A DNA stretch of 64,000 bases from an uncultured Clostridia bacterium (GTDB lineage: Bacteria > Bacillota > Clostridia > TANB77 > CAG-508), in contig CALXFB010000001.1 in the NCBI GenBank assembly GCA_944387475.1, positions 27,436 to 91,435 of the forward strand, in the 5' to 3' direction. The notes below the pieces were generated by a model that worked only from the letters and a program-made list of their open reading frames with translations, was not told where the DNA came from and searched no databases. Positions 3,897 through 33,736 of this stretch are shown here, piece by piece (within the stretch, counting starts at the first letter, position 1; every line of letters starts with the position of its first letter). The translations under genes and the position numbers were made by a program.

Positions 3897-3925
3897 AAAA
3901 TACAAGGAAACTTGTATTTTATTTT
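3897..3925 (+). terminator. rho-independent terminator after the tRNA cluster
   Basis: TACAAG-gaaa-CTTGTA followed by TTTTATTTT. Confidence 0.65.
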
Positions 3926-3977
3926 CAACCACAAAACGAACAAATATTTGAACAATAATAACTATATAATATAATAA

Positions 3978-4833: not shown

Positions 4834-4948
4834 AAAGTTAGAAGAAAAAGCAAAGAGGATGAATATATCAAAAAGATAAAAGTTTTGTTCTATAAAATAA
4901 TAAAAAAATTACATTATAAATTTAAATAAGATGTAAGGAGTATGAATA

Positions 4949-5242
4949 GTGGAAGAACAAAAAAGAGGTTTTACAAATCAAAAAATTCAAGACAAAATGT
5001 TATTATTGCTTGAAGAAACAGGAGAACTTGCAAAAGCGATAAGAAAAACATTACCAGAAGCCTCAATAGATTATAACAAAATAGAAAATTATACTGATAT
5101 AGAAGAAGGACCATCAGATGTTTTATATTATGTTATAATGATTGCAAATACATATGATATAGATTTAGAGAAATGCTTTAGAATTAAAGAAGAATTAAAT
5201 TGTGTTAGATATGGGCATCAATTAAAAATAGAGGATATATAA
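4949..5242 (+). CDS. small MazG-like nucleotide pyrophosphohydrolase domain protein (GTG start)
   Basis: 97 aa. The EETGELAKAIRK helix motif is typical of MazG/all-alpha NTP-PPase proteins. Confidence 0.55.
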   Translation: MEEQKRGFTNQKIQDKMLLLLEETGELAKAIRKTLPEASIDYNKIENYTDIEEGPSDVLYYVIMIANTYDIDLEKCFRIKEELNCVRYGHQLKIEDI

Positions 5243-5366
5243 ATATAGAGTACTCATAAAGAAAAAATACACTTGAAATATTATGTAAAATGATATATAA
5301 TGTTAAGCAAGTAATGTTGGATTAGTTTTCTATTAAAGATAACTATCAAATAGGGAAGGAAACATT

Positions 5367-5552
5367 ATGAAAAAAGTCGTTTATTCTTTTTTATTTGCAT
5401 TGATGGTATTTATATTTGAAAATTTTATAAATTATTCAATTTTATCATCGCAAGCAGAAATACTAGTTGATCTTACCATATATCATGCAATTGTTGTCTT
5501 TTTGATAACATTTATAGCATATGGACTAGGCGAAAGGAAAGAAAAAGATTAG
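5367..5552 (+). CDS. small membrane protein, unknown function
   Basis: 61 aa with two hydrophobic helices. RBS GGGAAGGAAAC upstream, hairpin terminator downstream. Confidence 0.5.
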   Translation: MKKVVYSFLFALMVFIFENFINYSILSSQAEILVDLTIYHAIVVFLITFIAYGLGERKEKD

Positions 5553-5561
5553 ACTTTTAAA

Positions 5562-5590
5562 CAAAGGGAGAAGCAGTGCTTCTCTCTTTG
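5562..5590 (+). terminator. hairpin terminator
   Basis: CAAAGGGAGAAGC-agt-GCTTCTCTCTTTG. Confidence 0.6.
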
Positions 5591-5739
5591 TGACCAAAAT
5601 TAAGATGTATGAAAATATAGAATCAAATAAAAAGTATAAAAAACAAAAGAAAAGCAAAAAGAGAAAAAAAGAAAGGTTAAAAAATAAAGAAAAAAGTGAT
5701 AAAAATGTAAAATAAATATAAATTATGAAAGGGATATAA

Positions 5740-7125
5740 ATGGGTATTTTAAATATAAATTTAGATAAATACAGAAAAAAGGCAGTAGAAATATATACCA
5801 AGATATTCGGAAAAGAATATGAAACAATAATAAGAAAAAGAATAGAAAGTGTAGAAATAGTAACATATAATTCAGAAAAGGGCATAAGAAAATATAAAAT
5901 ATTTTTAGAAAATTGTAAAGCAAGAGAATTATCAATAGAATTTTTAAGAAAAATAGGTATAGATGTAAGTAAAGAAAAAGGAAGAAGTTTTGCAGAAGAA
6001 TTGCCAGATGATTTAAGAAAATTAGCTAGGGAGTATTTTTGTGGAAATAGTGGTTTTACGTATTTTCCGGAAAAAAACAATGTGGGTATTAGAGGTTTTA
6101 AAAAGAAAACAAAAGAAGTAAATTCAAAAGACACAACAGAAAAACAAATAAGATTTATAAATTTCTTTTTGGGTAATGAGGAAATAGTAGATGAATATGA
6201 TTTAGAAGAGTTTTTAAGAACAGAAGAAGGAAGAGAAGTTTTAAAAAAGATTGAAGGATATAATAAAATTTTTAACGAAATATTAAAAAAATACCAAGAA
6301 TATGAAAAAACATTAGGAAATATAGAAGATTTTTTAGAATTTAGAAAAAATACCGACATTACAAAAACAGAAGAATTTGAAGAAATGAAAAAACTACTTT
6401 CTAAATTTCCAGTAGAAGGAGATGTAGAAAATGATGCATTTTATTTATTAAATCAAGGAAAAGTATTTGTAACAATAAATCCAGAAAAGCCAGTATTATT
6501 TTATACCATATTAGAAGGTGGAGGACTTGATTATACAATGCTACATGAGTTTTGCCATGTGATAGAAAAACATTCAAAAGGAAAAGAAAAGATAGGTTCT
6601 GGATTTGATATTACAAAAGAAAAAAATCTATATAGACCTGAAAAAAGAAAATATGAAAGATTAAATGAAAATATTACAGATATATTTAGTATTAGAGCAA
6701 CAAAAATTTTACATGAAAGAGAAGAATATTTATTAGAACCAAAAGAAATAGTTTTAAGTAATATTATGGATGCAAATACAAGTAGTATAACTAAAAATAT
6801 GCTTATGCCATTTCTTAAAAGATATAAAGAACAAATAATTAGAGCAAGAATTACAGGTGACATTAATAGTTTATTAGAAGTAGTAGGAAAAGATAATTTC
6901 GAAGAATTAAATGATTGTATAAATGTAGTAGACTATTTTATCTATGAAAAAGGATTATCAAAAATATTAGAAAAAAGAGCAAATAATGATAGAAAAGAAA
7001 AGGAAAAAGATATAGAGAGCACAGAAGAAGAGGTAATAGAAGAATATGAAAAACAATTACAAAGGTTAGATAGGATTTATATAAGCATGGAAGAAAATTT
7101 AAAAAGTAATAATCAAGAAAGATAA
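5740..7125 (+). CDS. hypothetical protein with an HExxH motif (possible zinc metallopeptidase)
   Basis: 461 aa, Lys/Glu-rich. MLHEFCHVIEKH is in the middle. I recognise no other family signature. Confidence 0.5.
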   Translation: MGILNINLDKYRKKAVEIYTKIFGKEYETIIRKRIESVEIVTYNSEKGIRKYKIFLENCKARELSIEFLRKIGIDVSKEKGRSFAEELPDDLRKLAREYFCGNSGFTYFPEKNNVGIRGFKKKTKEVNSKDTTEKQIRFINFFLGNEEIVDEYDLEEFLRTEEGREVLKKIEGYNKIFNEILKKYQEYEKTLGNIEDFLEFRKNTDITKTEEFEEMKKLLSKFPVEGDVENDAFYLLNQGKVFVTINPEKPVLFYTILEGGGLDYTMLHEFCHVIEKHSKGKEKIGSGFDITKEKNLYRPEKRKYERLNENITDIFSIRATKILHEREEYLLEPKEIVLSNIMDANTSSITKNMLMPFLKRYKEQIIRARITGDINSLLEVVGKDNFEELNDCINVVDYFIYEKGLSKILEKRANNDRKEKEKDIESTEEEVIEEYEKQLQRLDRIYISMEENLKSNNQER

Positions 7126-8883: not shown

Positions 8884-9792
8884 CTATTTGTAACGATAAA
8901 ATGTAAAATTAGTGCTGTCTTTTAAGGTTACTTTACCATCATAAATTGTTTCAGAATTTGTTTCTAATGGTATATCTAAATATACTGAACATTTAAATTC
9001 TTGTTCTAAATTATTTGTAATATATATATCAAATGAAATACTACTTTCAATTGTACTTAATAAAACATCACATTTTTTAAGTAAAGTTCCATCATATGTA
9101 ATTGGTGAAGATGTATCTGTTATTGTATAATCTGTTTTAATATTGTTATTTACATAGCTCAAAACTATAGGATTTGCCAGATTATTATAAAGTGTTGGCT
9201 TATCTAAATTTGCTTCATCATCAGATGTTATATTAAAATCTAATCTATTATTAATTAAATTTTCATCTATAATATCACTTTTTGCAAAATTAGATATGTT
9301 TTTATAATAAAGGCTTGGCGAGCCAAGTGTTGGTGTTTTTGTAAATTTTATATTATCAATATAAACACTTTTTAGAGTATTTTCGTAACTTTTGTTACTT
9401 TCAGGGCTTGTTATAAAAATAGCCATGTCAGTATATTGGTATAAATTCTCAATTGTAAAATTACTACTTGATGCTGATTTGTTTTTAACATCACAATTAC
9501 TAAAAAATGTTATATCTTTTATTTCAAAAACAGTTTTCTCATTTTTACTTGAAAAATCTAAAACACTATTTTCAAAATTTCTTTTTAATACATATTTATA
9601 AAATAATAAATAACAAAGTATAAAAACAATTATAAACAGTATTACTGTGATTATCGTTAATATAAATTCTTTTTTACTTAAATTCTTAAAATCTATGTTC
9701 TTATTTATTTTGTTATTTTTTACATTATCATTTTTTTCTTTATTATTTTTTTTCATATTTTTCGATTTTTTATTTTTAATATTTTTTTCCAT
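8884..9792 (-). CDS. hypothetical membrane-anchored protein (Lys/Asn-rich N-terminus, one TM helix, extracytoplasmic domain)
   Basis: 302 aa. TM segment FILTIITVILFIIVFILCYLLFY. RBS GGAGG upstream. Confidence 0.5.
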   Translation of the reverse strand: MEKNIKNKKSKNMKKNNKEKNDNVKNNKINKNIDFKNLSKKEFILTIITVILFIIVFILCYLLFYKYVLKRNFENSVLDFSSKNEKTVFEIKDITFFSNCDVKNKSASSSNFTIENLYQYTDMAIFITSPESNKSYENTLKSVYIDNIKFTKTPTLGSPSLYYKNISNFAKSDIIDENLINNRLDFNITSDDEANLDKPTLYNNLANPIVLSYVNNNIKTDYTITDTSSPITYDGTLLKKCDVLLSTIESSISFDIYITNNLEQEFKCSVYLDIPLETNSETIYDGKVTLKDSTNFTFYRYK

Positions 9793-10065
9793 AATTCCTC
9801 CTTTGTAAACAACTTTATAATATTACAAAAATAAGATAAAATCAAGTGTTTTTAGGCATAAATATAACTACTATTTTTATAATATTTATTATATCTTAAA
9901 AATATTACTAAAAAAATAAAATTACAGTAAAATATTTGAAATAAATAATAAATAAAAAAGGATTGATAAAACATTTCTAAGATTAAACTTAGAAGTGTTT
10001 TTTGTTACAAAAATATTAAAAGTATATTACAATTTAGTGACTAGTGGGGTTTTAGAGGTTTTTTC

Positions 10066-10094
10066 GTTGACAAAATAAGGTCAAAAATGTAGAA
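10066..10094 (+). promoter_or_regulatory. candidate sigma-A promoter
   Basis: TTGACA, 17-nt spacer, TAGAAT, followed by the RBS AGGTGA. Confidence 0.45.
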
Positions 10095-10103
10095 TTATAA
10101 TAG

Positions 10104-11339
10104 GTGATTAATATGAAATCAAAAGAAAAGAGAAGAAAAGGAATATCATTAAAAAATATAATAGTATTTTTTGTTGGTATTTTAGTTTTATTGTACTTAT
10201 TAATATTTTATAATTACTTTTTTGTAAAGAATGAAGTATTAGCAAAAGAAACAGTATCAGAAGTATCTGATGTTAAAATAAGTAATAAAGAATTAATAGA
10301 TATAGATGAAATAATAAAAACAAATACAGAAAATAATTCAAGTGAAGAATATGTAACAGAAGAAATAGATTTAGAATATATAACAAAATATGAAGCAAAT
10401 CCAGAATTACCAAAAGGCGTAATACAAGTAATTCAAGAAGGAAGAGAAGGAAAACAAGAAGTAGTAACTAAAAACATATATGAAAATGGACAACTAGTAT
10501 CAGAAGAACAAATAAGTAGTAAGGTAACAAAAGCAGCAGTAAATAAAATAGTAGAAATTGGACAAGGGGTAGGAAGTACATATAAAGTAAATAAAGGAGA
10601 TAAAGTATATACAATATCAGATAGAGTAGAGGTAAAATTAGAACCTAATATTAATTCTGAAAAAATAGCAACATTAGGAAAAGACGTAGAATTAACAGTT
10701 GTAGAAATAAATGGTGAGTGGTATCAAATAACAGGGCAAGGTATAAAAGGATATGTAAAAATAGAAAATACTACATATAAAAATAATGAAGAAGAAAAAA
10801 ATGTACAAGACGAAGAAAAAAATAATAGTGGTGGAGGCTATATTACTCCTTTGAGTTTTGATATGAAACTTAATAAACCAAGTGGACTTAGTTTAGAACA
10901 ATTTAAAAAGATATTAACAGATAGTAAAGATGTAAACAAAGTCATGGAAAAAAATGCACAATATTTTTATTACATAGAAGAACAATATAATATAAATGGT
11001 GTATTTGTAGCAGCAGTAGCAATACATGAAAGCGGATGGGGAACGTCAAAAATATCAAAAGACAAGTACAATTTATTCGGATATGGAGCATATGATTCAA
11101 GTCCATATAATAGTGCATATGAATTTTCAGATTATTCAGAAAGTATAGATTTAATAGCAAGAGTATTTGTTAAATATTATTTGAATGCAAAAGGCACTAC
11201 AATTTATGGTGGAGAACAAGCATCTGGAAAATATTATAATGGTCCGACATTAACAGGAGTAAATAAAAAATATGCAACAGATAAGAACTGGGCAAATGCA
11301 GTATATAAGCATATGGAATATTTATATAACAAATTATAG
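10104..11339 (+). CDS. cell-wall hydrolase with G5, SH3b-like and mannosyl-glycoprotein endo-beta-N-acetylglucosaminidase domains (probable start ATG 10113)
   Basis: G5-like YEANPELPKGVIQVIQEGREGKQEV. SH3b-like GEWYQITGQGIKGYVKIEN. Glucosaminidase AAVAIHESGWGTSKISKDKYNLFGYGAYD. Confidence 0.75.
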   Translation: MINMKSKEKRRKGISLKNIIVFFVGILVLLYLLIFYNYFFVKNEVLAKETVSEVSDVKISNKELIDIDEIIKTNTENNSSEEYVTEEIDLEYITKYEANPELPKGVIQVIQEGREGKQEVVTKNIYENGQLVSEEQISSKVTKAAVNKIVEIGQGVGSTYKVNKGDKVYTISDRVEVKLEPNINSEKIATLGKDVELTVVEINGEWYQITGQGIKGYVKIENTTYKNNEEEKNVQDEEKNNSGGGYITPLSFDMKLNKPSGLSLEQFKKILTDSKDVNKVMEKNAQYFYYIEEQYNINGVFVAAVAIHESGWGTSKISKDKYNLFGYGAYDSSPYNSAYEFSDYSESIDLIARVFVKYYLNAKGTTIYGGEQASGKYYNGPTLTGVNKKYATDKNWANAVYKHMEYLYNKL

Positions 11340-11441
11340 AAAATTCCTTGATATTTTTTACAATTTATTGTATGATATAAGGGTATAAGGCTTTAAATGG
11401 AAGATTTAACTAAAAGACTTTAGAAAGGGGCTAAAATAAAC

Positions 11442-11852: not shown

Positions 11853-14069
11853 ATGAAAGTACTATTTGCTGTAAGTGATGAAGAGATCTCAGAATCAATA
11901 GTTAAGAGATACCAAAAAGATTATAAACAAATAATCTCATACAAAAATGTATATTACTTTAATGCAATTTTAAAAGAAATACAAAAAGATAAAACTTATG
12001 ATAGAATTGTTATAAGTGAAGAGTTAGAAGCTTTTACACATACACAATATGATCAAATAGACAAATTTATATTTGAAAAATTGGACGGTATTAGTGATGA
12101 AGCATCAAATGTAAAAGGTGAAGATATACCAATTATTTTGATTTGTTCTGACAGAAGAGCAAAATCAGAAGAAATGTTAGTAAAACTATTCGGAATAGGT
12201 GTATATAATGCAGTAATAGGGGCAGATAGAAGTGTAGAAGAAGTATGTAAATTAATAAACAGACCACGTTCTAAAAAAGATGCAAAAATATATTATCAGA
12301 TAGATTCAGAAAATGTGAATTATCAAAGTGAAAACGAAAATGATGTAAGCGAAATAGAAATACAAAACATATTAGCACATTATAAAAGATTAGGAAAAAA
12401 TGAAGATAAATATTTAGAAAGTTTTGATAATATAGCAGCACAATATAATGATACACAATTAAGGATAATAAGCAAATTTTTGCCACTAAATGTAAGAGCT
12501 GTTTTAGAAGAAAAATCACCAAAATATCAACAAGTAATGTCATTTAATAGTAGTGTATCAGATAGATTAAGGAAAAACCAAAAACCAGTTATAGACGAAG
12601 GACCAAGTGAGACATTACTTATGCCAAAGCAAAAGAAGATGTCTAAACCAGTAGTTATTCCTTCAGCTGTTGATATGTCTAATGGCAAGAAATTAGCAAG
12701 AACAAAACAAACACAAGTAAAAGTTCCTGTTCCAGAACCAGAATTAGAAGAATTAGATGAAGACATATTTGAAAATATACAACCAGTAGAACAGATAGTA
12801 GAACCAGTAATAGAAGAACAACCAAAAAAGAGAAGAGGAAGACCGAGAAAAAATCCACTTCCAGAAGAAAGTACTGTTGTACAGCCGGTTAAAAGAGGAA
12901 GAGGAAGACCTAAGAAAAATGTAGAAAAAACAGTAGAAGAAATTTCTGTTTTACCAGGTTTAGAAGAAGAACCAGAAGAAATGATATTACCAGGTGTAGC
13001 AGATAATTATCAAGAAGAAACAACACAGGCAGATAAATTTGAAGAAAGTAATTTGAATGTGCAAAATACATCTAATATTACAAATTTATATAAAGATGAA
13101 GAAGAAAATTACGAAACAAACAATTTTGCACCAAGTAATATAACAAGGGATGTACCAAGAGGAAATATAGATATACAAACAGAAAAAATAGACTTATCAA
13201 GATATTTGATACCTGGTAAGAAAATTGCAACATTTATTGGGACTGGAAAGAATGGAACATCTTTTATAGTGAACAATATAGCAGAATTATTATCAACATC
13301 AGGCATAAATGTAGCAATACTTGATACTACTCAAAATAGAAATTCTTATTATATATATACAAAAAATGAGGAAGAATTAAGGCAAACAGCTTCAAAATCA
13401 ATTCAAGGATTAGCAAATGGAGAAGCAAAAGGAATAAAAGTAAATCAAAATCTTACAGTATATACATCTTTACCAGAAGAAGGGGAAGAAATAATACATA
13501 CAGATAAAATACTTGAAACATTGCTTCAAAATCATTCTTTGATTTTAATAGACACAGATTTTGATACACCTTATAGATATTTTGAACAGGCACAAGAAAT
13601 ATATTTAGTACAAACATTAGACGTGCTAACAATACAACCATTAACAGCTTTTTTGAGGGAATTAAAAGCAAAAAATATCTTAGATGAAAAAAAGATAAGA
13701 ATAGTACTTAATAAAATGGTAAGATTAAAAGGAGTAACAGATAAAACAATAATAGGTGGAATGGCATTTTATAATGACCCTTCAATGTCATTTATGACAG
13801 AATTATTTGATAGAAATACAGTAAAATATGTAGCAATTCCTTTTGATCAAGATGTTTATACAAAATATTTAGAAGGTATAATAGAATGTGATGTTACTTT
13901 AAAAGGATATTCAAAAACATTTATGCAAGCATTAAGAGAATTAGGAAATATGTTATATCAAACAGGAAATGTTGGATATACACCAAGAGTATCAGGTGGA
14001 TATACAAATACAAATAATTTTTCACCAAGTATGAATAATACTTTAAATCAGATGAAAAATAATTATTAA
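11853..14069 (+). CDS. CpaE/TadZ-like protein: pseudo-receiver N-domain, long acidic/Pro-rich linker with two AT-hooks, C-terminal ParA/MinD-like ATPase
   Basis: 738 aa. AT-hooks KKRRGRPRKNP and KRGRGRPKKN. Deviant Walker A region ATFIGTGKNGTSFIVNNIAELL. Confidence 0.55.
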   Translation: MKVLFAVSDEEISESIVKRYQKDYKQIISYKNVYYFNAILKEIQKDKTYDRIVISEELEAFTHTQYDQIDKFIFEKLDGISDEASNVKGEDIPIILICSDRRAKSEEMLVKLFGIGVYNAVIGADRSVEEVCKLINRPRSKKDAKIYYQIDSENVNYQSENENDVSEIEIQNILAHYKRLGKNEDKYLESFDNIAAQYNDTQLRIISKFLPLNVRAVLEEKSPKYQQVMSFNSSVSDRLRKNQKPVIDEGPSETLLMPKQKKMSKPVVIPSAVDMSNGKKLARTKQTQVKVPVPEPELEELDEDIFENIQPVEQIVEPVIEEQPKKRRGRPRKNPLPEESTVVQPVKRGRGRPKKNVEKTVEEISVLPGLEEEPEEMILPGVADNYQEETTQADKFEESNLNVQNTSNITNLYKDEEENYETNNFAPSNITRDVPRGNIDIQTEKIDLSRYLIPGKKIATFIGTGKNGTSFIVNNIAELLSTSGINVAILDTTQNRNSYYIYTKNEEELRQTASKSIQGLANGEAKGIKVNQNLTVYTSLPEEGEEIIHTDKILETLLQNHSLILIDTDFDTPYRYFEQAQEIYLVQTLDVLTIQPLTAFLRELKAKNILDEKKIRIVLNKMVRLKGVTDKTIIGGMAFYNDPSMSFMTELFDRNTVKYVAIPFDQDVYTKYLEGIIECDVTLKGYSKTFMQALRELGNMLYQTGNVGYTPRVSGGYTNTNNFSPSMNNTLNQMKNNY

Positions 14070-14092
14070 TAAAGCAAGGGGGAAAAAACCAA

Positions 14093-15232
14093 GTGGTAAT
14101 GATAGCAGTAGTTGTTATATTAGTTTTAATAGTAATTGGGCTAATATTCTATAATGTAAGAATACATAAAAAAATACAAAAATTTAGAAATTTAAATCAA
14201 AAAATAACAAATTTATATGTTGTACAAGATTTTATGAATGCAATAGGTGAAACATCCACAGTTGACGAAAAAATTAAAAAGATAAATGACATTTTGATAG
14301 AAAGATATGAAATAAAATATTCTACAATAGTAGTATTTGATGGAGCTGAATATCAAGTAAAAGCATCAAATGTTGACCATAAGCATTGGGATGCATTAAA
14401 ATCTTTGCAAGATGTAGATATGTTTAAAGATAGTATAGAATCAGCAACACCAAAATATGTGACAGTAAATAATGAAAATGAAAGACTTCCATATCAACAA
14501 ATGGAATTCGGAAGAGCAAAATCTGCTATATTTTTTCCTCTATATATTGATAATGTATATATTGGTTATTGGATAATAGAAAGTGGTACACCTCATGATT
14601 TTGATAATGTTGATACAACAGTATTAGAAGTAATAAAAGAAAATATTGTTTCTGTATTAAAAACAGTAGTACATCAAAAAACATTAGAAACAATAGTTAG
14701 AAAAGACTTATTTACAGGATTATATTCAGAAGAATATTTATATGGGGAAGGCAAAAAAATTATAGACCAATATACAGTTTCTACAATATGTATGTTTAAA
14801 ATAGCTAATATTGTACAAATTAATAAAGACTATTCAAGAGAACTTGGAAATAAAGTAATAACAGCAATTAGTGATTTTGTTTATGAAAATTTATCACAAG
14901 AGTATGTATTTGTAAGATATATGGGGCCTAAATTTGTCATTGCATTTTCAGGAGTTGAAGCAAATGCAGTTGCAGATTTCTTAAATGATATAAAAGAAAA
15001 GATAGAAGCAATGCAAATACATTTGACAGAAGATGAGATAAAAGAGCTTAATTTAGAAGTTAATTCTAAAAAGAAATTAACTAAAGAGATGGAAAAAGAA
15101 ATAGCTGTTCCAAGATTGAATTTTGTAATATCATCTTATTATAAAGGAACAGGATTAGAGGAAGTATTAAAGAAATTAGAAGAGTATTTAGATAATGCTG
15201 ATCCAAGTGAAAGTGATATAACTAATATATAA
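14093..15232 (+). CDS. membrane-anchored GAF-like / degenerate GGDEF domain protein
   Basis: DLFTGLYSEEYL matches D.LTGL.NR. The GGDEF position reads RYMGPKF, so the active site is probably lost. Confidence 0.55.
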   Translation: MVMIAVVVILVLIVIGLIFYNVRIHKKIQKFRNLNQKITNLYVVQDFMNAIGETSTVDEKIKKINDILIERYEIKYSTIVVFDGAEYQVKASNVDHKHWDALKSLQDVDMFKDSIESATPKYVTVNNENERLPYQQMEFGRAKSAIFFPLYIDNVYIGYWIIESGTPHDFDNVDTTVLEVIKENIVSVLKTVVHQKTLETIVRKDLFTGLYSEEYLYGEGKKIIDQYTVSTICMFKIANIVQINKDYSRELGNKVITAISDFVYENLSQEYVFVRYMGPKFVIAFSGVEANAVADFLNDIKEKIEAMQIHLTEDEIKELNLEVNSKKKLTKEMEKEIAVPRLNFVISSYYKGTGLEEVLKKLEEYLDNADPSESDITNI

Positions 15233-15254
15233 ATGAAAGAAGGAGGAAAGTATA

Positions 15255-15509
15255 ATGGAATTTGATAAAACAATGAGCTTTAAGGTAGAAAGAGAACAAA
15301 ATGTAAAATGTCAAGAAATATTAAAAGAAGTATATGAAGCATTAGTAGAAAAAGGATATAACCCAATAAATCAAATAGTTGGATATATTTTATCAGGAGA
15401 TCCAACATATATAACAAGTCACAAAGATGCAAGAAATAAAATAAGAACAGTAGAAAGAGACGAGTTATTAGAAAAAATGGTAAAAAAATATATAGGATTA
15501 GAAGATTAA
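15255..15509 (+). CDS. ireB: IreB-family regulatory phosphoprotein (UPF0297/DUF965)
   Basis: 84 aa. [37 protein letters not shown]. Conserved position just upstream of ruvX. Confidence 0.8.
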
Positions 15510-17266: not shown

Positions 17267-17287
17267 ACATGTTTTAGGAGAAAGGTT

Positions 17288-17593
17288 ATGGAAGACGATA
17301 TTGATAGAGAAGTTAGAAAAATAATAAATGAATTAAAAGGAACAATAGAAGTAATAGAAAAATTACAAAAAGAAAACCTTATTTTTCTTAAAAGTAGAAT
17401 AAAATATATTATCGAAAATAAGATAACAGATATAAAAGAAATAGAAATAATATTAGACCAATTGTTAATATAGCTTATTGGGGATTATAAAAGTGTAAGA
17501 AAGAATTTTAATAAAATAATTAATTATTATAAAAAAGTTGATACAAAAAAAGCTAAATTTTACCAAGATTATTATATAAAAATAGAGGAATAG
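17288..17593 (+). CDS. hypothetical protein interrupted by an in-frame TAG at 17471-17473
   Basis: A 61-codon ORF, then TAG, then 39 further sense codons in the same frame up to TAG 17591-17593. Confidence 0.35.
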
Positions 17594-17774
17594 TTTTTAC
17601 TAAAATTGTTTCTTAAGGCAAAATAAATTACTTGATAAAAATATTAAATTTTGATATAATAATAACCTAAGGTAAATAATTATGAATAGAAAAATAGCTA
17701 TAAAGAAAGAGTGAAAATAATGAATAAAATAAGATGAATATAAATTGCTTGACTTATTGTAAAAATGAAAGGAT

Positions 17775-18848
17775 GTGATAATATTGAAAAAGAAAAATGA
17801 AATGATAGTAAATAATGAGAATGATATAATTGATGTTGAAAATATTTATCAGGATATACGAAGTAAGATAATAAGTGCAAGAGAAAAAATGATTAAACAT
17901 ATTGATACTACAATGACAGAAGTATATTGGTATGTTGGAAAAATTACTTATGAATTATCTAATAATAGTACTAAAGCTAGTTATGGAAAGAGAATAATAG
18001 ATGCATTGTCTATAAAATTAAGTAAAGAGTTTGGTAGTGGTTTTTCGCCAGTTAGTATTAGAAGAATGCGCAAATTTTATGAGTTATATCCAATATGGTC
18101 GGCAGTGCCGACCGAATTATCTTGGTCTCATTTTCAACAATTAATTAGAATAGATAGAAAAGAGGAAAGAGAATTTTATGAGCAAGAAGCAATTAAATCC
18201 AATTGGGGCTATAGAGAATTAAATAGGCAAATTAATACAAAATTGTACGATAGATATTTAATATCTCCTGATAAAAAATTAATTATTGAAGATTCTAAAA
18301 AAGGATTAATAGCAAAACAACCGGAAGAACTTTTAAAAACACCTTATATATTTGAATTTGTTGGAGTAAAAGAAAACAAAAATTACTTAGAAACGGATTT
18401 AGAAAGTGCATTATTATCACATTTAACAGAGTTTTTATTAGAACTTGGCAGAGGTTTCTCTTTTGTCGCAAGTCAGCAAAGAATTAAGGTTGGTGCAGAG
18501 TATTATTATCCAGATTTGATATTTTATAACAGATTAGCAAAATGTTTTGTAATAATTGATTTAAAAATTGGAAAATTAACTCATCAGGATATTGGTCAAA
18601 TGCAAATGTATGTAAATTATTATAAAAAGACTCAAATGATTGATGGAGAAAATGAACCTATTGGAATATTACTTTGTGCAGATAAAGATGATGCAGTGGT
18701 GGAACTGACTTTAGGGGATGATGTGAAAAATGTATATGCATCTAAATATTTAACTTATTTGCCTACTAAAGAAGAGTTGATTAAAATAATTAGAGATGAA
18801 AAAGAATTATACGAATTATCCAAAGAAGAAGGTGATAAAAATGAGTGA
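17775..18848 (+). CDS. YhcG-like PDDEXK nuclease (DUF1016 family)
   Basis: LSWSHFQQLIRI ... YYYPDLIFYNRLAKCFVIIDLKIGKLTHQDIGQMQMYVNYY (D..(D/E)xK core). Confidence 0.7.
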   Translation: MIILKKKNEMIVNNENDIIDVENIYQDIRSKIISAREKMIKHIDTTMTEVYWYVGKITYELSNNSTKASYGKRIIDALSIKLSKEFGSGFSPVSIRRMRKFYELYPIWSAVPTELSWSHFQQLIRIDRKEEREFYEQEAIKSNWGYRELNRQINTKLYDRYLISPDKKLIIEDSKKGLIAKQPEELLKTPYIFEFVGVKENKNYLETDLESALLSHLTEFLLELGRGFSFVASQQRIKVGAEYYYPDLIFYNRLAKCFVIIDLKIGKLTHQDIGQMQMYVNYYKKTQMIDGENEPIGILLCADKDDAVVELTLGDDVKNVYASKYLTYLPTKEELIKIIRDEKELYELSKEEGDKNE

Positions 18849-19752
18849 AAATCAAAATAAGGGGTTGCATAAAAGCGTAATCAATTGGTATCCAGGACAT
18901 ATGGCAAAAACAAGAAGACAAATAATAGAAGATTTAAAATTAGTAGATATAGTAATAGAATTGTTAGATGCAAGAATACCAATGGCAAGTAGAAATCCAG
19001 ACATTGGTGAGATTACAAAAAATAAGAAAAAAATAATTGTGTTAAATAAATGTGATTTAGCAGATGAAAAAGAAAGCAAAAGGTGGGTATCATATTTTGA
19101 AAATAAGGGAATTCCAGCAGTGTTAGTCGATTCTAATACAGGAAAAGGTATAAATAATTTTATAAAAAGAATAGAAAAAATAATGGAAGAAGAACAAGAA
19201 AAAGAAATTGCAAAAGGAAGAGTTGGTAAAAAAATTAGAGCAATGATAATAGGAATACCTAATGTAGGGAAATCATCATTTATAAATAGAATAGCTAAAA
19301 AAAGTACAGCAGAGGTGGGCAATAAACCAGGAGTAACTAAAAAGAAACAGTGGATACGCATTAATGAAAAAATAGAATTATTAGACACGCCAGGTGTATT
19401 ATGGCCTAAGTTTGAAAGTGAAGATGTTGCTTTAAAACTTAGTTTTACAGGAACAATAAAAGAGGATGTATTAGAAAGAACAGAAATAGCGTATGAATTA
19501 GTAAAATACTTGTTAGAAAATGAAAGAGAAAAACTATGCACAAGATATGGATTAACAAATGAATATGTACAAGAAGTGTTAAATAAAGATAATGAGGAAA
19601 ATTTTAATATTTATGAAATTATGTTAGAAATAGGAAAAAAAAGAGGTTGTATTATTTCAGGCGGAAATATAGATGATGAAAAAACAGCTAGGATTATATT
19701 AGATGAATTTAAAAATGGTAAATTGGGGAAAATAACGTTGGAAAGAATATAG
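18841..19752 (+). CDS. rbgA: ribosome biogenesis GTPase A (YlqF/RbgA)
   Basis: The ATG at 18841 overlaps the upstream stop (ATGAGTGA). WYPGHMAKTRR, NKCDL, GIPNVGKSSFINR, DTPGVLWPKF (circularly permuted GTPase). Confidence 0.9.
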   Translation: MSENQNKGLHKSVINWYPGHMAKTRRQIIEDLKLVDIVIELLDARIPMASRNPDIGEITKNKKKIIVLNKCDLADEKESKRWVSYFENKGIPAVLVDSNTGKGINNFIKRIEKIMEEEQEKEIAKGRVGKKIRAMIIGIPNVGKSSFINRIAKKSTAEVGNKPGVTKKKQWIRINEKIELLDTPGVLWPKFESEDVALKLSFTGTIKEDVLERTEIAYELVKYLLENEREKLCTRYGLTNEYVQEVLNKDNEENFNIYEIMLEIGKKRGCIISGGNIDDEKTARIILDEFKNGKLGKITLERI

Positions 19753-20215: not shown

Positions 20216-20290
20216 GGCCCCTTGGTCAAGCGGTTAAGACGCCACCCTCTCAAGGTGGAATCATGGGTTCGATTCCCGTAGGGGTCACCA
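20216..20290 (+). tRNA. tRNA-Glu (anticodon CUC)
   Basis: GGCCCCTTGGTCAAGCGGTTAAGAC..., anticodon stem CCACC/GGTGG with loop CTCTCAA, T-loop GGTTCGATTCC, CCA end. Confidence 0.85.
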
Positions 20291-20412: not shown

Positions 20413-20440
20413 TTGACATTCTTTTTTTTGATGTTACAAT
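20413..20440 (+). promoter_or_regulatory. sigma-A promoter with extended -10
   Basis: TTGACA (20413-18), 16-nt spacer ending in TGT, TACAAT (20435-40). Confidence 0.6.
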
Positions 20441-20446
20441 TAATAT

Positions 20447-20560
20447 ACCAGAAGGGAATAACCCTTCGTTCGGTCGATAGCTGGATACTGATTTTCATTA
20501 ATTAAACGTATGTTAAGTACGTCAGTCTAGTTGGGAGGAGAGTTTAGGCTCTCTTTTCTT
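20447..20560 (+). ncRNA. candidate ~110-nt small RNA of unknown class
   Basis: It sits between a strong promoter and a weak terminator (AGGAGAG-tttagg-CTCTCTT + TCTTTT). Internal hairpins are GAAGGG-aataa-CCCTTC and ACTGA...CGTA-tgttaag-TACGTCAGT. No plausible ORF or RBS. Confidence 0.35.
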
Positions 20561-20687
20561 TTAAGGCAAATTTATTTTTTAATAAAAGAATAAAAACTTT
20601 TAAAAAAGTACTTGACAATAAAAATTTTTAGTATAAAATAGTCGTTGGTAGAATAAATTAAAAAAGATTATAAAAATATATTATTGT

Positions 20688-28463: not shown

Positions 28464-28730
28464 TTATTTATAAATTTCTTTTCTGTGTCCTATTTCCAAA
28501 ACAAGAATTATTACTTCATTATCTTGTATTTCGCATATAATTCTATAGTCTCCGACTCTATATCTCCATTGTCCAGATTTATTTTCAACTAATCCTTTAC
28601 CATGTATTCGAGGATTTTCACAATTTTGAATGTTTTTTTCTAACCAACCCAAAATAAGAGAAGATATATGTTTATCTAATTTTTTTAATTGTTTTTTTGC
28701 TTTTTCTGTAAATACTACTTGATATTTCAT
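28464..28730 (-). CDS. relE: type II toxin, RelE/ParE superfamily
   Basis: 88 aa. WRYRVGDYRIICEIQDNEVIILVLEIGHRKEIY. It overlaps the upstream antitoxin gene by 4 nt. Confidence 0.8.
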   Translation of the reverse strand: MKYQVVFTEKAKKQLKKLDKHISSLILGWLEKNIQNCENPRIHGKGLVENKSGQWRYRVGDYRIICEIQDNEVIILVLEIGHRKEIYK

Positions 28731-28957
28731 TCTAACCCCAACTCCTTTTTTACTTCGTCTAATGTATAAGTTTTAGGGTTTTTCTTATAATCTTTTATTG
28801 CTGATTCATAACATTTTAAATCGTATTCGTCTTCTATTTTTTCTAATAATGCAGTTCTAATTAAATCAGATAAAGAAATATTATTCATTTTTGCATATGT
28901 TTTTATCAATTTTGAATCTTTATCATCTAATCTTACTGAAATAGTCATAATTATCAC
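28727..28957 (-). CDS. type II antitoxin (ribbon-helix-helix, RelB/DUF6290-like)
   Basis: 76 aa. ISVRLDDKDSKLIKTYAKMNNISLSDLIRTALLEKIEDEYD. Confidence 0.7.
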   Translation of the reverse strand: MIIMTISVRLDDKDSKLIKTYAKMNNISLSDLIRTALLEKIEDEYDLKCYESAIKDYKKNPKTYTLDEVKKELGLE

Positions 28958-29432
28958 TTCCTTTCTATATTTATTGTACTACATTGTATTACATTTGTCA
29001 ATGTTATTATATTATTATTTCCGATAAATTGTGATAATATATATTTTGAAATTATTTTTCATAATTTAAAAAAGATAATGTAACAAAAATGTAATATAAA
29101 AAATAAGAAAAAAGTATTTACAAATAAGCTATTTACATGTAAAATTACAACATAGAATATAAAACTAAGGAAAAGGAAGATAATTATGAACAAACAAGAG
29201 CTTAGAACCCTTGAGGCTGTATATATATATATAAAAGTAGGTTATTAGAAAAAGAAAATAAAGAAATGAATAGAATAAATATAGATAATAAGATAACAGT
29301 GAAACCTAAAAATATAAAAATTTAGGTTTTCTATTGTTATCTTTTTTTGTTGTTTTTAAAGTTTTATAAATAAAAAGAACAAAGAATGAGGGACAAAAGC
29401 AAAATAAAAGAATAAAAGGAGGAAGAGGAAAG

Positions 29433-30821
29433 ATGCAAGACAAAAGAATAATTGAAGAAAGGAGAATTTATAAAATGAAACAAAAAGAAATTAAAAAATT
29501 AAACAACAAAGGTATTACATTAATTGCACTTGTCATTACGATAATTGTTTTGCTGATTTTAGCTGGTGTTTCAATAGCAATGCTAACAGGAGAAAATGGA
29601 ATTTTAACACAAGCTCAAAGAGCAAAAGAACAGACAAGTGTTGCTGAAGAAAAAGAATTAATTGCACTAGCATATAATGCAGCAGTAACAAAAAAACAAA
29701 GTACAGATGTAGAAGCAAAGGATTTAAATGATGAATTTGAAGCAAGTGATGTAAATGCAGAGGCAAGTGGAAATATAATAGTATATTTCAAAGATACTCA
29801 AAGATATTATACTGTTGAAAATGGAGTTGTAGAAGGACCAACTACTGAAAAGCCTGAAACAGCATTAACCTTAGTTGCAATGTTTGAAAATGGAGAAACT
29901 TGTGATAAAAAAGACGGAACTTGTACAGATGAAACACATTTGCATATTGGTGACTATGTAAATTATAACCCAGGAACTTCTGGAAGTTATACAAGTACAG
30001 GTGCAAATACAGGAATGGAACAAAATGGTAGTGGATTTCCGGATGAAATAAAAAATCAAGTATTTAAAGTAGATAATTCAACTACTTGGAGAGTTTTAGG
30101 AACTGAAGGCGAAGGAAGTAATAAACATATATTATTAGTAAGTGGTAGTCCAATAAAAAAAGAAACAACATCAAATGATCCATATTATTATTTATATAGT
30201 GCTTGGGGTTATAAAAATGCGGAAACAGAATTAAATAATATTTGTGCTATATATGGAAAAGGAAAAGGTGCAGAAAGTGCAAGAAGTTTAACAGCAGAAG
30301 ATATTAACAAAATTTGTGGAGTAACAGTAGTAAGTGAAACAGAAATAAAACCAGATGGAGTAAGCGAAGATAGTAGTTATGGACAAACTCATAGTTATAC
30401 AAATCAATTTGCAAATGAAGATGATTTTATAGCAGGAACTAGAAGCGATTTTACTAAAACATCAGATGCTTATTATTATAGTGGTGATAACTCAGCTTTA
30501 GTTACAGCAACTAATAAAAGGCTTTATGATATGATTTTCTATCTAAGTGGAAATGAGCAATATAAAAAAGAATACTGGCTGGCTTCTCGCGGTGTCGGCA
30601 CCGTTTCTGGCTATTGCATCTTCGATGTTGGAGCAGTCTTTGAGGGTGCTGCAGGACCTGAAGGTTACTACTTGTTTGCCTCTGATGGCAACGAGGACTT
30701 GCGCAGTTATGCCGTTCGCCCCGTAGTTTCTCTGGAATCTAATGTCTCAATAGATACAATACAAAAAATAGAAGATCAGCAAGAGGAAGATTGGTCTATT
30801 TATGAAAGAACACCTATATAA
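29433..30821 (+). CDS. DGR target protein: prepilin-like N-terminal leader/TM and a C-terminal lectin-fold (DUF1566-like) variable domain (alternative start ATG 29475)
   Basis: KGITLIALVITIIVLLILAGV resembles a prepilin-type leader. The C-terminus WLASRGVGTVSGYCIFDVGAVFEGAAGPEGYYLFASDGNEDLRSYAVRPVVSL carries the VR. Confidence 0.75.
   Translation: MQDKRIIEERRIYKMKQKEIKKLNNKGITLIALVITIIVLLILAGVSIAMLTGENGILTQAQRAKEQTSVAEEKELIALAYNAAVTKKQSTDVEAKDLNDEFEASDVNAEASGNIIVYFKDTQRYYTVENGVVEGPTTEKPETALTLVAMFENGETCDKKDGTCTDETHLHIGDYVNYNPGTSGSYTSTGANTGMEQNGSGFPDEIKNQVFKVDNSTTWRVLGTEGEGSNKHILLVSGSPIKKETTSNDPYYYLYSAWGYKNAETELNNICAIYGKGKGAESARSLTAEDINKICGVTVVSETEIKPDGVSEDSSYGQTHSYTNQFANEDDFIAGTRSDFTKTSDAYYYSGDNSALVTATNKRLYDMIFYLSGNEQYKKEYWLASRGVGTVSGYCIFDVGAVFEGAAGPEGYYLFASDGNEDLRSYAVRPVVSLESNVSIDTIQKIEDQQEEDWSIYERTPI
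30576..30731 (+). repeat. DGR variable repeat (VR)
   Basis: 156 bp that aligns without gaps to 30909-31064. Markedly more GC-rich than the surroundings. 18 differences, 16 of them opposite TR adenines. Confidence 0.85.
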
Positions 30822-30854
30822 AATCACAAGAAGGCCTGGTGTCTTCTTGTGATT
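30822..30854 (+). terminator. hairpin after the DGR target gene
   Basis: AATCACAAGAAG-gcctggtgt-CTTCTTGTGATT + TT, directly after the stop codon. Confidence 0.6.
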
Positions 30855-30908
30855 TTGAAAATTTTGGCAAAGTTTAATTATATATACTTTGTAGGGTATG
30901 GTTGTAGG

Positions 30909-31064
30909 TGGCTGGCTTCTCGCTGTGTCAACACCAATTCTGACAATTGCAACTTCAATGTTGGAGCAGTCTTTGAGGGTACTGCAGGACCTGAAGGTAA
31001 CAACTTGTTTAACTCTGATGGCAACGAGAACTTGAACAGTTATGCCGTTCGCCCCGTAGCTTCT
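30909..31064 (+). repeat. DGR template repeat (TR)
   Basis: In the same reading register as the VR. Rich in AAC/AAT codons (..CVNTNSDNCNFNVGAVFEGTAGPEGNNLFNSDGNENLNSYAVRPV..). ORF 30849-31160 is just this repeat read through. Confidence 0.85.
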
Positions 31065-31217
31065 ATACACTGTGGTTATGCAAGTAATGCTTGTATAAGA
31101 GATAATATAGAAACAAACCATTATCCTTTCGCATATGATTATGTGATAAATAAAAAATAGATAGCCATATTTGTAAGTAAGAAAAATCGAAAGGGAGTAT
31201 GTCTTATAACTATTTTT

Positions 31218-31248
31218 ACAGTAGCAGATAAATTGCTACTGTTTTTTT
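31218..31248 (+). terminator. strong rho-independent terminator closing the TR transcription unit
   Basis: ACAGTAGCA-gataaat-TGCTACTGT + TTTTTT. Confidence 0.75.
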
Positions 31249-31336
31249 GGAAAAATATTTAGTATTAAGTGTAGATTTTTAAAAAACGTTATGATAAAAT
31301 ACATAGCAAAGGTGAAGAAAAAAATGGAGGATTAAA

Positions 31337-33736
31337 ATGGGAAATATAGTATTGCTAGATGAATTAACAATAAATAAAATAGCAGCAGGAGAAGTTATAG
31401 AAAGACCAGCATCAGTAGTTAAAGAAATGGTAGAAAACTCAATAGATGCAGGAGCAAGTTCAATAACTGTTGAAATAAAAAATGGAGGAATATCATGTAT
31501 AAAAGTAAGTGATAATGGAAAAGGAATAGCAAATGATGATTTAGAAATAGCATTTGAAAGACATGCAACAAGTAAAATAAGATCAGCAGATGATTTAGAC
31601 ACAGTAACATCTATGGGGTTTAGAGGAGAGGCATTAGCAAGTATTGCAGCAGTTGCAAATGTAGAACTTGTATCAAAAACAGAAGAACAAGAAATAGGAT
31701 ATAAAGTTGTAGTAGAAGCAGGAAATGTACTTGAAAAAGAAGAAGCAGGATGTAGAACAGGAACAACAATAACAGTAAGAAATTTGTTTTTCAATACACC
31801 AGTTAGATATAAATTCTTAAAAAAAGATTATACAGAATCAGGTTATATAGAAGATGCAATAACAAGAATAGCATTAGTAAATCCGAATGTTGCAATAAAA
31901 TTGATAAATACAGGAAAAACTGTAATTCAGACAAATGGAAGTGGAAGCCTAAAAGATGTAATATATAGCATATATGGAAAAGATGTAGCATCAAGCATAT
32001 TAGATGTAAATTACCAATATGAAGATATAACAGTATCAGGGGCAATAGGAAAACCAGAGATTGCAAGATCAAATAGAACACAACAATTATTTTTTGTAAA
32101 TAAAAGATATGTAAAAGATAAAACTTTAACAGCAGCAACAGAACAAAGTTATAAAGGCTTAATACCAATAGGAAAATTTGGGTTTGTTGTATTAAATATA
32201 GAAATGAATCCAGCAAAAGTAGATGTAAATGTACATCCAGCAAAATTAGAAGTAAGATTTCAAGAAGAAAATAAAATATTCCAAGCAGTATATCATGCAA
32301 TAAAAGAAACATTATTAAAAGGAGAATTAGTAGCAGACCCAGAGAAAAATTTAAAAAATGCTAATAACGATAAAGAAAAAACAACAGATAGAAGTATAGG
32401 AAGCTTTGAAGAAAGGTTAAAAAACTTAAGAGAAGCAAAAAAAGAAACAAGCCAAGGAGGGTTATTCGGATTTAGAAAACAAAATGAAAAACAAATAGAA
32501 AAATACACAGAAGAAGAAAGTAAAATAAAAACAAATATATTAGAAGATGTTTATAATAGTAAAAATAAAAATGAAAACGAAGAAAAAAATGAACAAGAAG
32601 ACGAAAATGGAATAACATATGAAATAGGAAATAAAAACGAAAAAAATGATATAAAATTAGGTACACCAATAGACACAACAGATGTATTAGAACAACTAAA
32701 AAAGATGAGAGCAAAAATAGAAGACGAAATAAAGGCTAGTGGAAATATAAGGTTAGAAGAAAAAAATGAAGAGTATAAATTAGAAACAAATGGTGAAAAT
32801 GGAGAAGGATTTATAAATATTAAAGAAAATGAAAAAGAAGAGAAAAAAGAGGAAGAAAAAGAAGAAATAACTAAAGAGCAAAAAGAAAAAATAGATAAAG
32901 TAAATGATGTATTAGAAAATATAGATAATAAAGAAATAAAAGAAGAATTCGGCGAAATAAAACAAAAGATGGAAGAATTAAATAATAATCCTAAAGTTGT
33001 ATCAGAAGACTTTGATGAAATGTATAGAAAATTATTCGGAAGGGCACCAATAGGAAACAAAGAGGAAGAGAAAAAAGAAGAAAAAGAAGATAAAAATAAT
33101 GCAATAGATATAGTAAAAAGCAATATATCAATGTTTGATGCAGAAGAAAAATATCAAAAACCAACATATAAATTTATAGGCATAATATTTAAAACATACA
33201 TAATCTTAGAAATAGGAGAAGAAATGTATATATTAGACCAACATGCAGCACATGAAAGAATATTATATGAAAAAGTAAAAGAAAATTATTATAGTGATGA
33301 AGTAAAAGACTCACAATTGATGTTAATACCAGATGTAATAACATTATCACATAAAGAAATGGACATAGCAAAAGAAAATATACCAATGTTTGAAAAAGCA
33401 GGATTCACATTAGAAGAATTTGGAGAAAACACAATAAAATTAACAGGAGTACCAACTGTATGTATAGATCTAAATACAAAAGAGCTATTTTTAGAAACAT
33501 TAGATGAAATAAATACAGTAGCAAGAACAGCAAAACAAGAAAAAGAAGAAAAATTTATAGCGACAGTAGCATGTAAAGCAGCAGTAAAAGCTAATATGGC
33601 ATTAACAGAAGAAGAAGTAGAAAAACTAATGGACGAATTATTAAAACTACCTAATCCATTTACTTGCCCACATGGAAGACCAACAGTTATAAAAATGACA
33701 AAATATGATATAGAAAGAAAATTTGCAAGAAAGTAG
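31337..33736 (+). CDS. mutL: DNA mismatch repair protein MutL with an unusually long Lys/Glu/Asn-rich linker
   Basis: LDELTINKIAAGEVIERPASVVKEMVENSIDAGA at the N-terminus. C-terminal dimerisation/endonuclease region ILDQHAAHERILYE ... CPHGRP. Confidence 0.9.
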   Translation: MGNIVLLDELTINKIAAGEVIERPASVVKEMVENSIDAGASSITVEIKNGGISCIKVSDNGKGIANDDLEIAFERHATSKIRSADDLDTVTSMGFRGEALASIAAVANVELVSKTEEQEIGYKVVVEAGNVLEKEEAGCRTGTTITVRNLFFNTPVRYKFLKKDYTESGYIEDAITRIALVNPNVAIKLINTGKTVIQTNGSGSLKDVIYSIYGKDVASSILDVNYQYEDITVSGAIGKPEIARSNRTQQLFFVNKRYVKDKTLTAATEQSYKGLIPIGKFGFVVLNIEMNPAKVDVNVHPAKLEVRFQEENKIFQAVYHAIKETLLKGELVADPEKNLKNANNDKEKTTDRSIGSFEERLKNLREAKKETSQGGLFGFRKQNEKQIEKYTEEESKIKTNILEDVYNSKNKNENEEKNEQEDENGITYEIGNKNEKNDIKLGTPIDTTDVLEQLKKMRAKIEDEIKASGNIRLEEKNEEYKLETNGENGEGFINIKENEKEEKKEEEKEEITKEQKEKIDKVNDVLENIDNKEIKEEFGEIKQKMEELNNNPKVVSEDFDEMYRKLFGRAPIGNKEEEKKEEKEDKNNAIDIVKSNISMFDAEEKYQKPTYKFIGIIFKTYIILEIGEEMYILDQHAAHERILYEKVKENYYSDEVKDSQLMLIPDVITLSHKEMDIAKENIPMFEKAGFTLEEFGENTIKLTGVPTVCIDLNTKELFLETLDEINTVARTAKQEKEEKFIATVACKAAVKANMALTEEEVEKLMDELLKLPNPFTCPHGRPTVIKMTKYDIERKFARK

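Follow-up and report, generated by a model that had tools for sequence, protein, structure and literature searches.

A probable non-autonomous diversity-generating retroelement module, without a reverse transcriptase gene of its own, in an uncultured Clostridia bacterium

We analyzed a 64-kb stretch of DNA from an uncultured Clostridia bacterium (contig CALXFB010000001.1, positions 27,436 to 91,435; hereafter the window, with coordinates counted from its first nucleotide). It carries the repeat pair of a diversity-generating retroelement (DGR): a variable region (VR) at the 3' end of a gene for a pilin-like surface protein and, downstream of it, a template repeat (TR). No gene for a reverse transcriptase (RT), for Avd or for a MutS-like protein was found across these 64 kb. 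We conclude that the locus is probably a non-autonomous DGR module, lacking RT and Avd, that is served in trans by an RT and Avd encoded elsewhere. On the best reading, the module consists of the pilin-like target with its VR and a stand-alone, non-coding TR-spacer RNA gene with its own terminator. As far as sequence permits, the data establish that an invariant TR passes its information to a variable VR through adenine-specific mutagenesis; that an RT acts in trans is a plausible proposal.

The repeat pair and its variation among strains

VR and TR form an ungapped direct repeat of 156 nt with 88% identity, and the pair sits in frame, the codon register of the VR matching that of the target open reading frame (ORF). 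The coordinates of both repeats (Table 1), their gapless alignment and their common register had been given in an initial annotation of this DNA, and re-alignment recovered all of them. It also recovered the 18 mismatches counted there, of which 16 fall at TR adenines (A>G 9, A>T 5, A>C 2) and the other two are a T>G at 30591 and a C>T at 30727. When recomputed against the 37 adenines among the 156 TR bases, the adenine bias persisted (hypergeometric P = 5.5e-10). The repeats are also GC-richer than their surroundings, as the annotation had noted (0.36 vs. ~0.26 across the window). Searches of the window with blastn and nhmmer returned no third copy of the TR or of the spacer that follows it.

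VR and TR end in a common GC-rich segment, GCCGTTCGCCCCGTAG, and diverge past 30731 and 31064, respectively. Within this end the VR has T at 30727, where the TR has C at 31060 (Ala>Val), and the VR-specific T is fixed in 8 of 8 VR alleles. By analogy with the Bordetella phage DGR, GCCGTTCGCCCCGTAGTTTCT with its fixed T30727 is a candidate initiation-of-mutagenic-homing (IMH) site.

Comparison of strains revealed a constant TR beside a rewritten VR. The initial annotation held that identical VRs in related strains would speak against a DGR; in two related strains we found VRs unrelated to that of the window and the same TR. Strain L001 is 98.9% identical to the window across 14.7 kb and has an identical TR, whereas 16 of the 18 differences in its VR are at TR adenines. 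Strain L091, 99.1% identical across 17.2 kb and again with an identical TR, has a VR that departs from the TR at 19 positions, namely 18 adenines and the fixed base in the IMH-like 3' end. It shows 22 differences from the VR of the window, 21 of which lie at TR adenines. In general, the VRs of strains that are at least 98.9% identical differ at 18–24 positions, nearly all of them TR adenines. At the protein level, the 15 listed members of the cluster formed at 90% identity carry 8 VR peptides, and 87 of their 103 residue changes relative to the translated TR can be reached by A>N substitutions alone. Variation in this cluster is concentrated in the VR, where 20 of 52 residues vary, vs. 27 of 410 in the rest of the protein.

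Two further features of these strains were observed. Although otherwise unrelated, the VRs of the window and of L001 have in common the adenine-site substitutions at 30597–30598, 30648, 30669 and 30702–30703, which could reflect partial replacement of the VR during homing, selection on the residues, or shared ancestry. In L091, an IS-type transposase gene (DDE_Tnp_1, 577 aa; 17274–19007, minus strand) lies between HlyD-like genes and sepF and is additional to what the window contains.

An RT-less layout with a conserved spacer RNA at two chromosomal sites

The neighbors of the module are ordinary chromosomal genes, and the order is ABC ATPase and FtsX permease, a ParE/RHH toxin-antitoxin pair (minus strand), target, TR, mutL and miaA; mutL (31337–33736) follows directly downstream, so that the TR-spacer lies between the target gene and mutL. 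None of the scanned window ORFs of at least 150 aa contains an RVT_1 domain (Pfam), and tblastn of the window with the RT, Avd and MutS-like (MSL) proteins of the family described below gave no match with an E-value <1. A scan of the window for RT motifs found a single YIDD, in an amidoligase ORF that starts at 43218, which we do not read as an RT. Thus, the DGR reading of the initial annotation stands for an adenine-specific VR/TR pair, confirmed by the strains, but not for a complete DGR; that a neighboring RT gene is absent had gone unremarked there.

The same RT-less arrangement recurs in two studies on >15 independent contigs, the longest reaching 103 kb, and is therefore not an assembly artifact. 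Collapse of VR onto TR does appear to occur in assemblies: on contigs L021, L031, L036, L037, L039 and L055, the target ORF runs into the TR-spacer and MSL and avd are missing. These six short, low-coverage contigs most likely reflect collapse of the VR/TR repeat by the assembler, and they call for caution in metagenome surveys of DGRs. For the window, loss of an adjacent RT by such a collapse is very improbable, as is a partial gene duplication with a chance adenine bias, since both repeats are held there, 333 nt apart, the layout recurs on independent contigs, and the bias recurs independently in other strains. Moreover, what follows the TR is not a copy of the 3' flank of the gene but a DGR spacer RNA that is conserved.

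Complete cassettes of the same family served for comparison. The closest target homologs in such cassettes are those of L002 (55% identity), L017 (56%) and L011/L077 (37%). Their canonical order is target, a small MutS_I-like ORF, bAvd, TR, spacer, and an RT of 317–320 aa; the bAvd of these relatives matches NF033474 (E = 5e-11), and the MutS_I-like ORF falls in the MSL accessory class (Wu et al., 2018; PMC5758913). A 20-mer of the spacer was found at five loci in GTDB genomes, all from other species, and on 48 JGI/ENA metagenome contigs. Nearly all of the 53 loci have the target-MSL-Avd-TR-spacer-RT order; those with sufficient flank are canonical, and others are truncated. Canonical relatives have their RT no more than 1.3 kb away from the spacer, mostly encoded on the opposite strand past the spacer terminator, which makes TR RNA and RT separate transcripts in this family in any case.

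Low-GC uncultured Clostridia are the source of the related loci; among them is Clostridium sp. CAG:245, which GTDB places in TANB77. Canonical cassettes of the family contain two small ORFs resembling MutS domain I, one in the gap between target and avd and one convergent past the RT (Table 1). The window module has no such ORFs, yet lies directly upstream of mutL.

Beyond the target, what the window has in common with these cassettes is the template and its spacer. Window positions 30894–31245 are 79% identical to L002 over 353 nt, covering the TR and the entire TR-to-RT spacer, and the spacer itself is 81–82% identical to the TR-to-RT spacers of L011, L002 and L017. From about 30894, within the linker upstream of the TR, the homology to L002 corresponds to the last bases of avd in canonical cassettes; at the other end it stops at a hairpin and T-run (31218–31250), just ahead of the L002 RT start codon. 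The stop codon of the target and the TR are 87 nt apart. To judge from its sequence, the linker may hold a promoter for the TR RNA (TTGAAA at 30855–30860, N18, TATATA at 30879–30884).

The spacer is presumed to be the element at which RT and Avd recognize the RNA and prime synthesis. Motifs RT-1 to RT-19 have been proposed as DGR RNA elements, RT-10 being located between TR and brt in BPP-1 (Weinberg et al., 2017; PMC5737381). Window positions 31060–31205 match one of these models in Rfam, RT-14 (RF02921), at 35.0 bits (E = 0.002) vs. a gathering threshold of 48.1 bits. All 144 positions of the model are matched, including both of its main hairpins. RT-14 is a structured RNA that adjoins an RT, whereas the window spacer matches the full model below threshold and has no adjoining RT; it is a related but distinct RT-14 variant.

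Covariation supports the predicted fold. Across 35 distinct spacers, 92.5% of the cells in a four-element structure are paired, compared with 36–50% when the pairing partners are slid, and 14 pairs show compensatory changes, a number reached in 0 of 500 shuffles. The window spacer keeps all helices and has compensatory changes of its own, such as U-A to G-C in the first hairpin. An ORF of 103 aa, also annotated by gene callers, runs over TR and spacer. It is most likely not a real gene, and we rejected it in favor of an RNA because conservation 3' of the TR follows RNA pairing and not a coding pattern; being a copy of the VR reading frame, the TR would be open in that frame without coding for a protein.

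A second RT-less module was found on L014–L016, where an 80%-identical target homolog (P0136) lies between nrnA and truB in the region of the nusA-infB-rbfA operon, with no RT or Avd within 9–10 kb. Window positions 29482–31247 and L014 positions 9094–10869 are 87.8% identical over 1.78 kb, and the flanks are unrelated. The junctions are the same at both sites: target stop, 16-bp hairpin, 52-nt linker, TR, spacer and terminator. In L014, 13 of 14 mismatches between TR and VR are at TR adenines. The two TRs are 97.4% identical, with four differing positions, and at each of the informative sites 59, 62 and 89 every VR bears the base of its own TR. Thus, transfer from TR to VR continued after the RT-less modules had diverged. 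Special conservation of the TR between the modules was considered and rejected, since their entire 3' two-thirds are ~90–97% identical, either as a mosaic or through recent exchange.

The peptide encoded by the TR ORF was used as a proxy for TR DNA in a search of 5.8 billion proteins, which returned only the L014-type relative (94%); the next matches were at most 70% identical. This collection contains no canonical locus with the same TR, so that none is known from which the VR alleles could have been imported.

Other observations concern related loci. An L003-type locus was examined as a target of the window TR and rejected, as it has 42 mismatches, many at non-adenine sites. In P0137, a member of the L014-type cluster, the 3' half of the VR is the TR sequence, including the ...PVAS end that is specific to the TR and otherwise untranslated; P0137 is either a VR/TR assembly chimera (its contig is 2.3 kb long) or the product of non-mutagenic homing that ran through the IMH. 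Toxin-antitoxin genes adjoin several DGR loci, namely the window (ParE/RHH at 28464–28957, minus strand), L014 (11878–12521, minus strand) and L002 (5525–5713), the latter two with HicA/HicB-like genes.

Possible sources of the missing enzymes

If the module is served in trans, the TR-spacer RNA would be transcribed from its own small gene. An RT and Avd, probably together with a MutS-like protein, would recognize the conserved spacer, all of them being encoded elsewhere by a canonical cassette of the same family. The RT would copy the TR into cDNA, misincorporating opposite adenines, and the cDNA would replace the VR, directed by the GC-rich IMH-like 3' end.

Three candidate master RTs (P0224, P0189 and P0259) were considered, and none could be tied to the window genome. 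P0259 is the RT of L077 (the L011 contig, from BRZ_GN bin6), which has the canonical spacer closest to that of the window (82%) and the same G-C pairs in spacer helix 5. We rejected it as partner because it belongs to a related species, its ABC-FtsX genes being only 82% identical to those of the window at the nucleotide level. P0224 was set aside since it comes from other samples. A phage origin was rejected as well: IMG/VR lacks a 26-mer of the spacer, and among viral RTs the best match has 38% identity.

Several observations weigh against service in trans. The enzymes themselves were not found in the window, in its extended flanks or among the cohort candidates. By looking up the proteins at the window edges, we extended the locus on ENA scaffold_208 (103.5 kb), covering at least 79 kb in total, and RT and Avd are absent from −37 to +42 kb of the module. 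None of the samples listed contains both the L077 RT and a window-type strain. The remaining candidate, L075 (RT P0189), is from the same two cohorts, but its spacer is just 71% identical. Within the family, the L002 RT (12607–13314) stops at 235 aa, just past YQDD and next to a PDDEXK-type gene, compared with a full length of 317–320 aa. A promoter for the TR RNA was not called by a consensus scan, and a few VR changes among the cluster alleles fall on non-adenine sites. Finally, VR allele P0121, which is the same as that of the window, was found on 10 contigs in several samples, and VR turnover is therefore not fast on the scale at which strains spread.

The missing enzymes, the widespread P0121 allele and the truncated L002 RT also favor the main rival explanation, a decaying relic that lost avd/MSL and RT by two deletions and whose VR is frozen, the diversity having arisen before the loss or having spread by recombination. 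L002 is an example of cassette decay within the family; its RT is followed by an ORF of 327 aa (13735–14718), and a PDDEXK_2-type gene lies in the same neighborhood of L077. A further point in favor of a relic is the L003-type homolog (64%), which has a VR-like end, no nearby TR, and identical VRs in both known alleles. However, the RT-less layout with the same junctions occurs in all window-type strains and at the second locus, and is thus older than the split of the strains. Nevertheless, the VRs of strains that are 98.9–99.1% identical are unrelated to one another, and at essentially every non-adenine site each of them agrees with the TR, which is unchanged. In addition, the VRs of both modules carry the lineage-specific bases of their own TRs, no AAY codon of the TR has been lost, and the spacer helices are maintained with compensatory changes. 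The protein collection held no canonical donor locus with this TR. A relic is hard to square with the strain comparison and the second module, and we regard it as unlikely.

A variant of service in trans is that RT and Avd are supplied only occasionally, by a horizontally acquired plasmid, integrative element or cassette of a related strain, with diversification occurring in bursts. Related species with canonical cassettes of this family are present in cohorts BRZ and ONAT22-1, some VR alleles are long-lived, and the modules adjoin toxin-antitoxin genes of the kind typical of variable regions. Against this, the RT family has no close viral relative in IMG/VR, and the canonical loci are all embedded among chromosomal housekeeping genes. 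We give such intermittent supply little credence.

We return to a module served by a resident RT and Avd. It is possible, and we suggest it tentatively, that cassettes of target plus TR-spacer are distinct, heritable and relocatable 'satellite' DGR modules that have a template RNA gene of their own, with RT-recognition structure and terminator but no enzyme, and that stay functional because they borrow the RT, Avd and MSL of a master cassette. If so, several independent templates and targets could be served by one set of enzymes, and modules could relocate within the chromosome, in this case between sites proximal to mutL and to truB.

The module shares a 3' VR, an adenine-specific TR, a GC-rich IMH-like end and a structured spacer RNA with canonical avd-TR-RT DGRs that have MSL (prototype BPP-1; Architecture B + MSL class; Wu et al., 2018; PMC5758913), and it is directly homologous in sequence to the family's canonical cassettes L002, L017 and L077. 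Unlike canonical DGRs, it has no RT, Avd or MSL in cis, and its TR-spacer is free-standing with a terminator of its own. Moreover, in contrast to canonical DGR targets, its pilin-like variable domain is not detectably a C-type lectin (CLec) or immunoglobulin fold. Remote DGR targets have been described, for example in Treponema denticola and Legionella, 73 such targets in all (Wu et al., 2018; PMC5758913), and for a gene remote from the RT to be diversified, the RT/Avd/cDNA machinery must act in trans. The known remote targets have only a VR and use the TR of the master cassette, whereas the window locus brings its own TR and spacer RNA, which the searches above did not find anywhere else.

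Loci without an RT are also on record, as partial DGRs in Nanoarchaeota (Paul et al., 2015; PMC4372165) and as incomplete DGRs in Thiohalocapsa PB-PSB1 (Dore et al., 2024; PMC10907252). The passages of these reports that deal with such loci describe a target with VR, sometimes a TR, and adenine mutagenesis, read as activity in trans or in the past; for PB-PSB1, some incomplete loci had intact variants in the population. Relative to those passages, the present data extend to repeated rewriting in multiple strains once the RT-less layout existed, a covarying spacer RNA, and two sites with the same junctions. What we add is a remote locus with its own TR and terminated spacer RNA, its rewriting after the RT-less state arose, and its occurrence at two chromosomal sites. 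In functional terms, the arrangement resembles that of short and long interspersed nuclear elements (SINEs and LINEs), in that the structure recognized by an RT encoded elsewhere is preserved in an RNA gene; no shared ancestry is meant, and unlike in SINEs the cDNA replaces a segment of a homologous gene instead of inserting as a new copy.

TR/VR modules without RT are routinely missed because DGR finders start at the RT gene. Should such modules be active, gut bacteria would have more hypervariable genes than estimated, and a TR-spacer RNA would by itself suffice to specify the template of an RT acting in trans. Nature would thereby offer a precedent for the modular and reprogrammable DGRs under construction in E. 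coli. With the conserved spacer there would also be a concrete candidate for the RT-recognition element in a large DGR family of Clostridia.

The pilin-like target and other features of the window

Table 1. Features of the module in window coordinates, and of related cassettes in the coordinates of their own contigs.
Feature	Position	Strand	Description and basis
Promoter-like site TTTACA-17-TAAAAT	29117..29145	+	10/12 consensus matches; function inferred
DGR target gene	29433..30821	+	462-aa pilin-like surface protein; ORF list, homologs, AlphaFold
Prepilin-like N-terminal segment KG/ITLIALVITIIVLLILAGV	29508..29570	+	N_methyl below gathering score
VR	30576..30731	+	Last structured 52 codons of target; mismatch pattern, strain differences
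IMH-like GC-rich VR 3' end GCCGTTCGCCCCGTAGTTTCT	30711..30731	+	Read from sequence
16-bp hairpin and T-run	30820..30856	+	Directly 3' of target stop; fold prediction; near-identical in L014
103-aa ORF over TR and spacer	30849..31160	+	ORF list; also annotated by gene callers
Linker, target terminator to TR	30857..30908	+	52 nt; ~95% identity window vs. L014
TR	30909..31064	+	37 adenines, mostly AAC/AAT codons; identical in three strains with differing VRs
Structured spacer (Sp) RNA	31065..31250	+	186 nt, ends in intrinsic terminator (stem 31218–31242 and T-run)
MutS domain-I-like ORF pair, L002	11423..11887; 15081..15473	; −
MutS domain-I-like ORF pair, L017	2790..3245; 5613..6002	; −
MutS domain-I-like ORF pair, L077	8591..9037; 10961..11356	; −

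The real start of the target is probably the ATG at 29475, which is preceded by AGGAG. Behind a prepilin-like leader and a hydrophobic helix, the protein has a long helix and then a ~320-aa globular domain whose C-terminal end is the VR. The N-terminal KGITLIALVITIIVLLILAGV and the C-terminal ...SYAVRPVVSL of the protein are present as described in the initial annotation. The leader is short, basic and ends in Gly, and is followed by ITLIALV..., with Ala rather than Glu as residue +5. A prepilin-like leader, as proposed there, is weakly supported: 18 of 50 homologs match Pfam N_methyl, but the window protein itself scores under the cut-off (E = 0.011; 15.7 bits vs. 21.2). A family profile gave weak matches to the N-termini of type IV pilins in the PDB (E = 0.03–0.08), and the window contains no pilus assembly genes.

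The target belongs to a large, uncharacterized family of pilin-like proteins (>7,900 at E ≤ 1e-3) from low-GC gut Clostridia that are uncultured. Beyond the N-terminus, no Pfam family was found in the window protein or in 50 homologs, even with E-values up to 10, and a PDB sequence search gave no match outside the N-terminal region. AlphaFold models were confident, with a mean predicted local distance difference test (pLDDT) of 86 for the full-length protein and, for the C-terminal 323 aa, a pLDDT of 90.5 and a predicted template modeling score (pTM) of 0.91. Foldseek searches of the PDB with these models gave best E-values of 0.26 and 0.58 (0.58 for the C-terminal model), and the best match of the full-length model in BFVD had E = 0.11. 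The lectin-like, DUF1566/CLec-type fold expected in the initial annotation was therefore confirmed by neither Pfam, the PDB sequence search nor Foldseek; the structure prediction suggested there to look for a C-type lectin did yield a confident model, but one without a structural neighbor.

The VR domain may have either a strongly diverged CLec fold or a new type of scaffold. The motifs W-x-x-S...VRPV resemble those of CLec-type VRs. Because the variable domain has no recognizable structural relative, it may be a new scaffold for DGR-driven ligand binding. The likely role of the module is to vary the end with which a pilus-associated or surface adhesin binds its ligand, in a low-GC lineage of uncultured gut Clostridia that is probably TANB77-like. 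As context, conserved pilin-like proteins occur in TANB77, and pilins of this group have been linked to effects on host immunity (PMC11680825).

The promoter-like site upstream of the target belongs to a segment conserved between the window and L014; window 29078–29127 is 90% identical to L014 8756–8804 despite unrelated flanks. Between this site and the gene, a hairpin in the 5' leader (29302–29357, plus strand; AAACCTAAA...TTTAGGTTT) is followed by a T-rich run, and its 3' half is kept in L014 where the adjoining sequence has diverged. No Rfam family matched this hairpin at gathering thresholds; it may be an attenuator or another leader element. The hairpin directly past the stop codon (Table 1) is probably the terminator of the target gene.

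Elsewhere in the window, the biotin carboxylase gene (accC) is split into 632–1159 and 1404–1994 (plus strand), ~245 nt apart. The same split is called in L089 and L090 (172 aa and 196 aa), and hence is not a sequencing error of a single assembly; it could represent a pseudogene or an intervening sequence. Three tRNA genes (3647–3893) are followed by a Bro-N protein (3978–4757) and a 461-aa protein without Pfam match (5740–7125), and the region 3647–7125 may be a remnant of an integrated element. Three consecutive Amidoligase_2 paralogs occupy 42048–46382; after them, within the region 42048–49028, the GC content at 46–49 kb falls to 0.18–0.21, and the proteins encoded there have no Pfam matches. 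Finally, a DUF3800-I RNA (Rfam RF02969; 55.9 bits vs. a gathering threshold of 44.2) was identified at 20440–20564 (plus strand), downstream of a tRNA gene (20216–20287) and upstream of a P-type ATPase gene.

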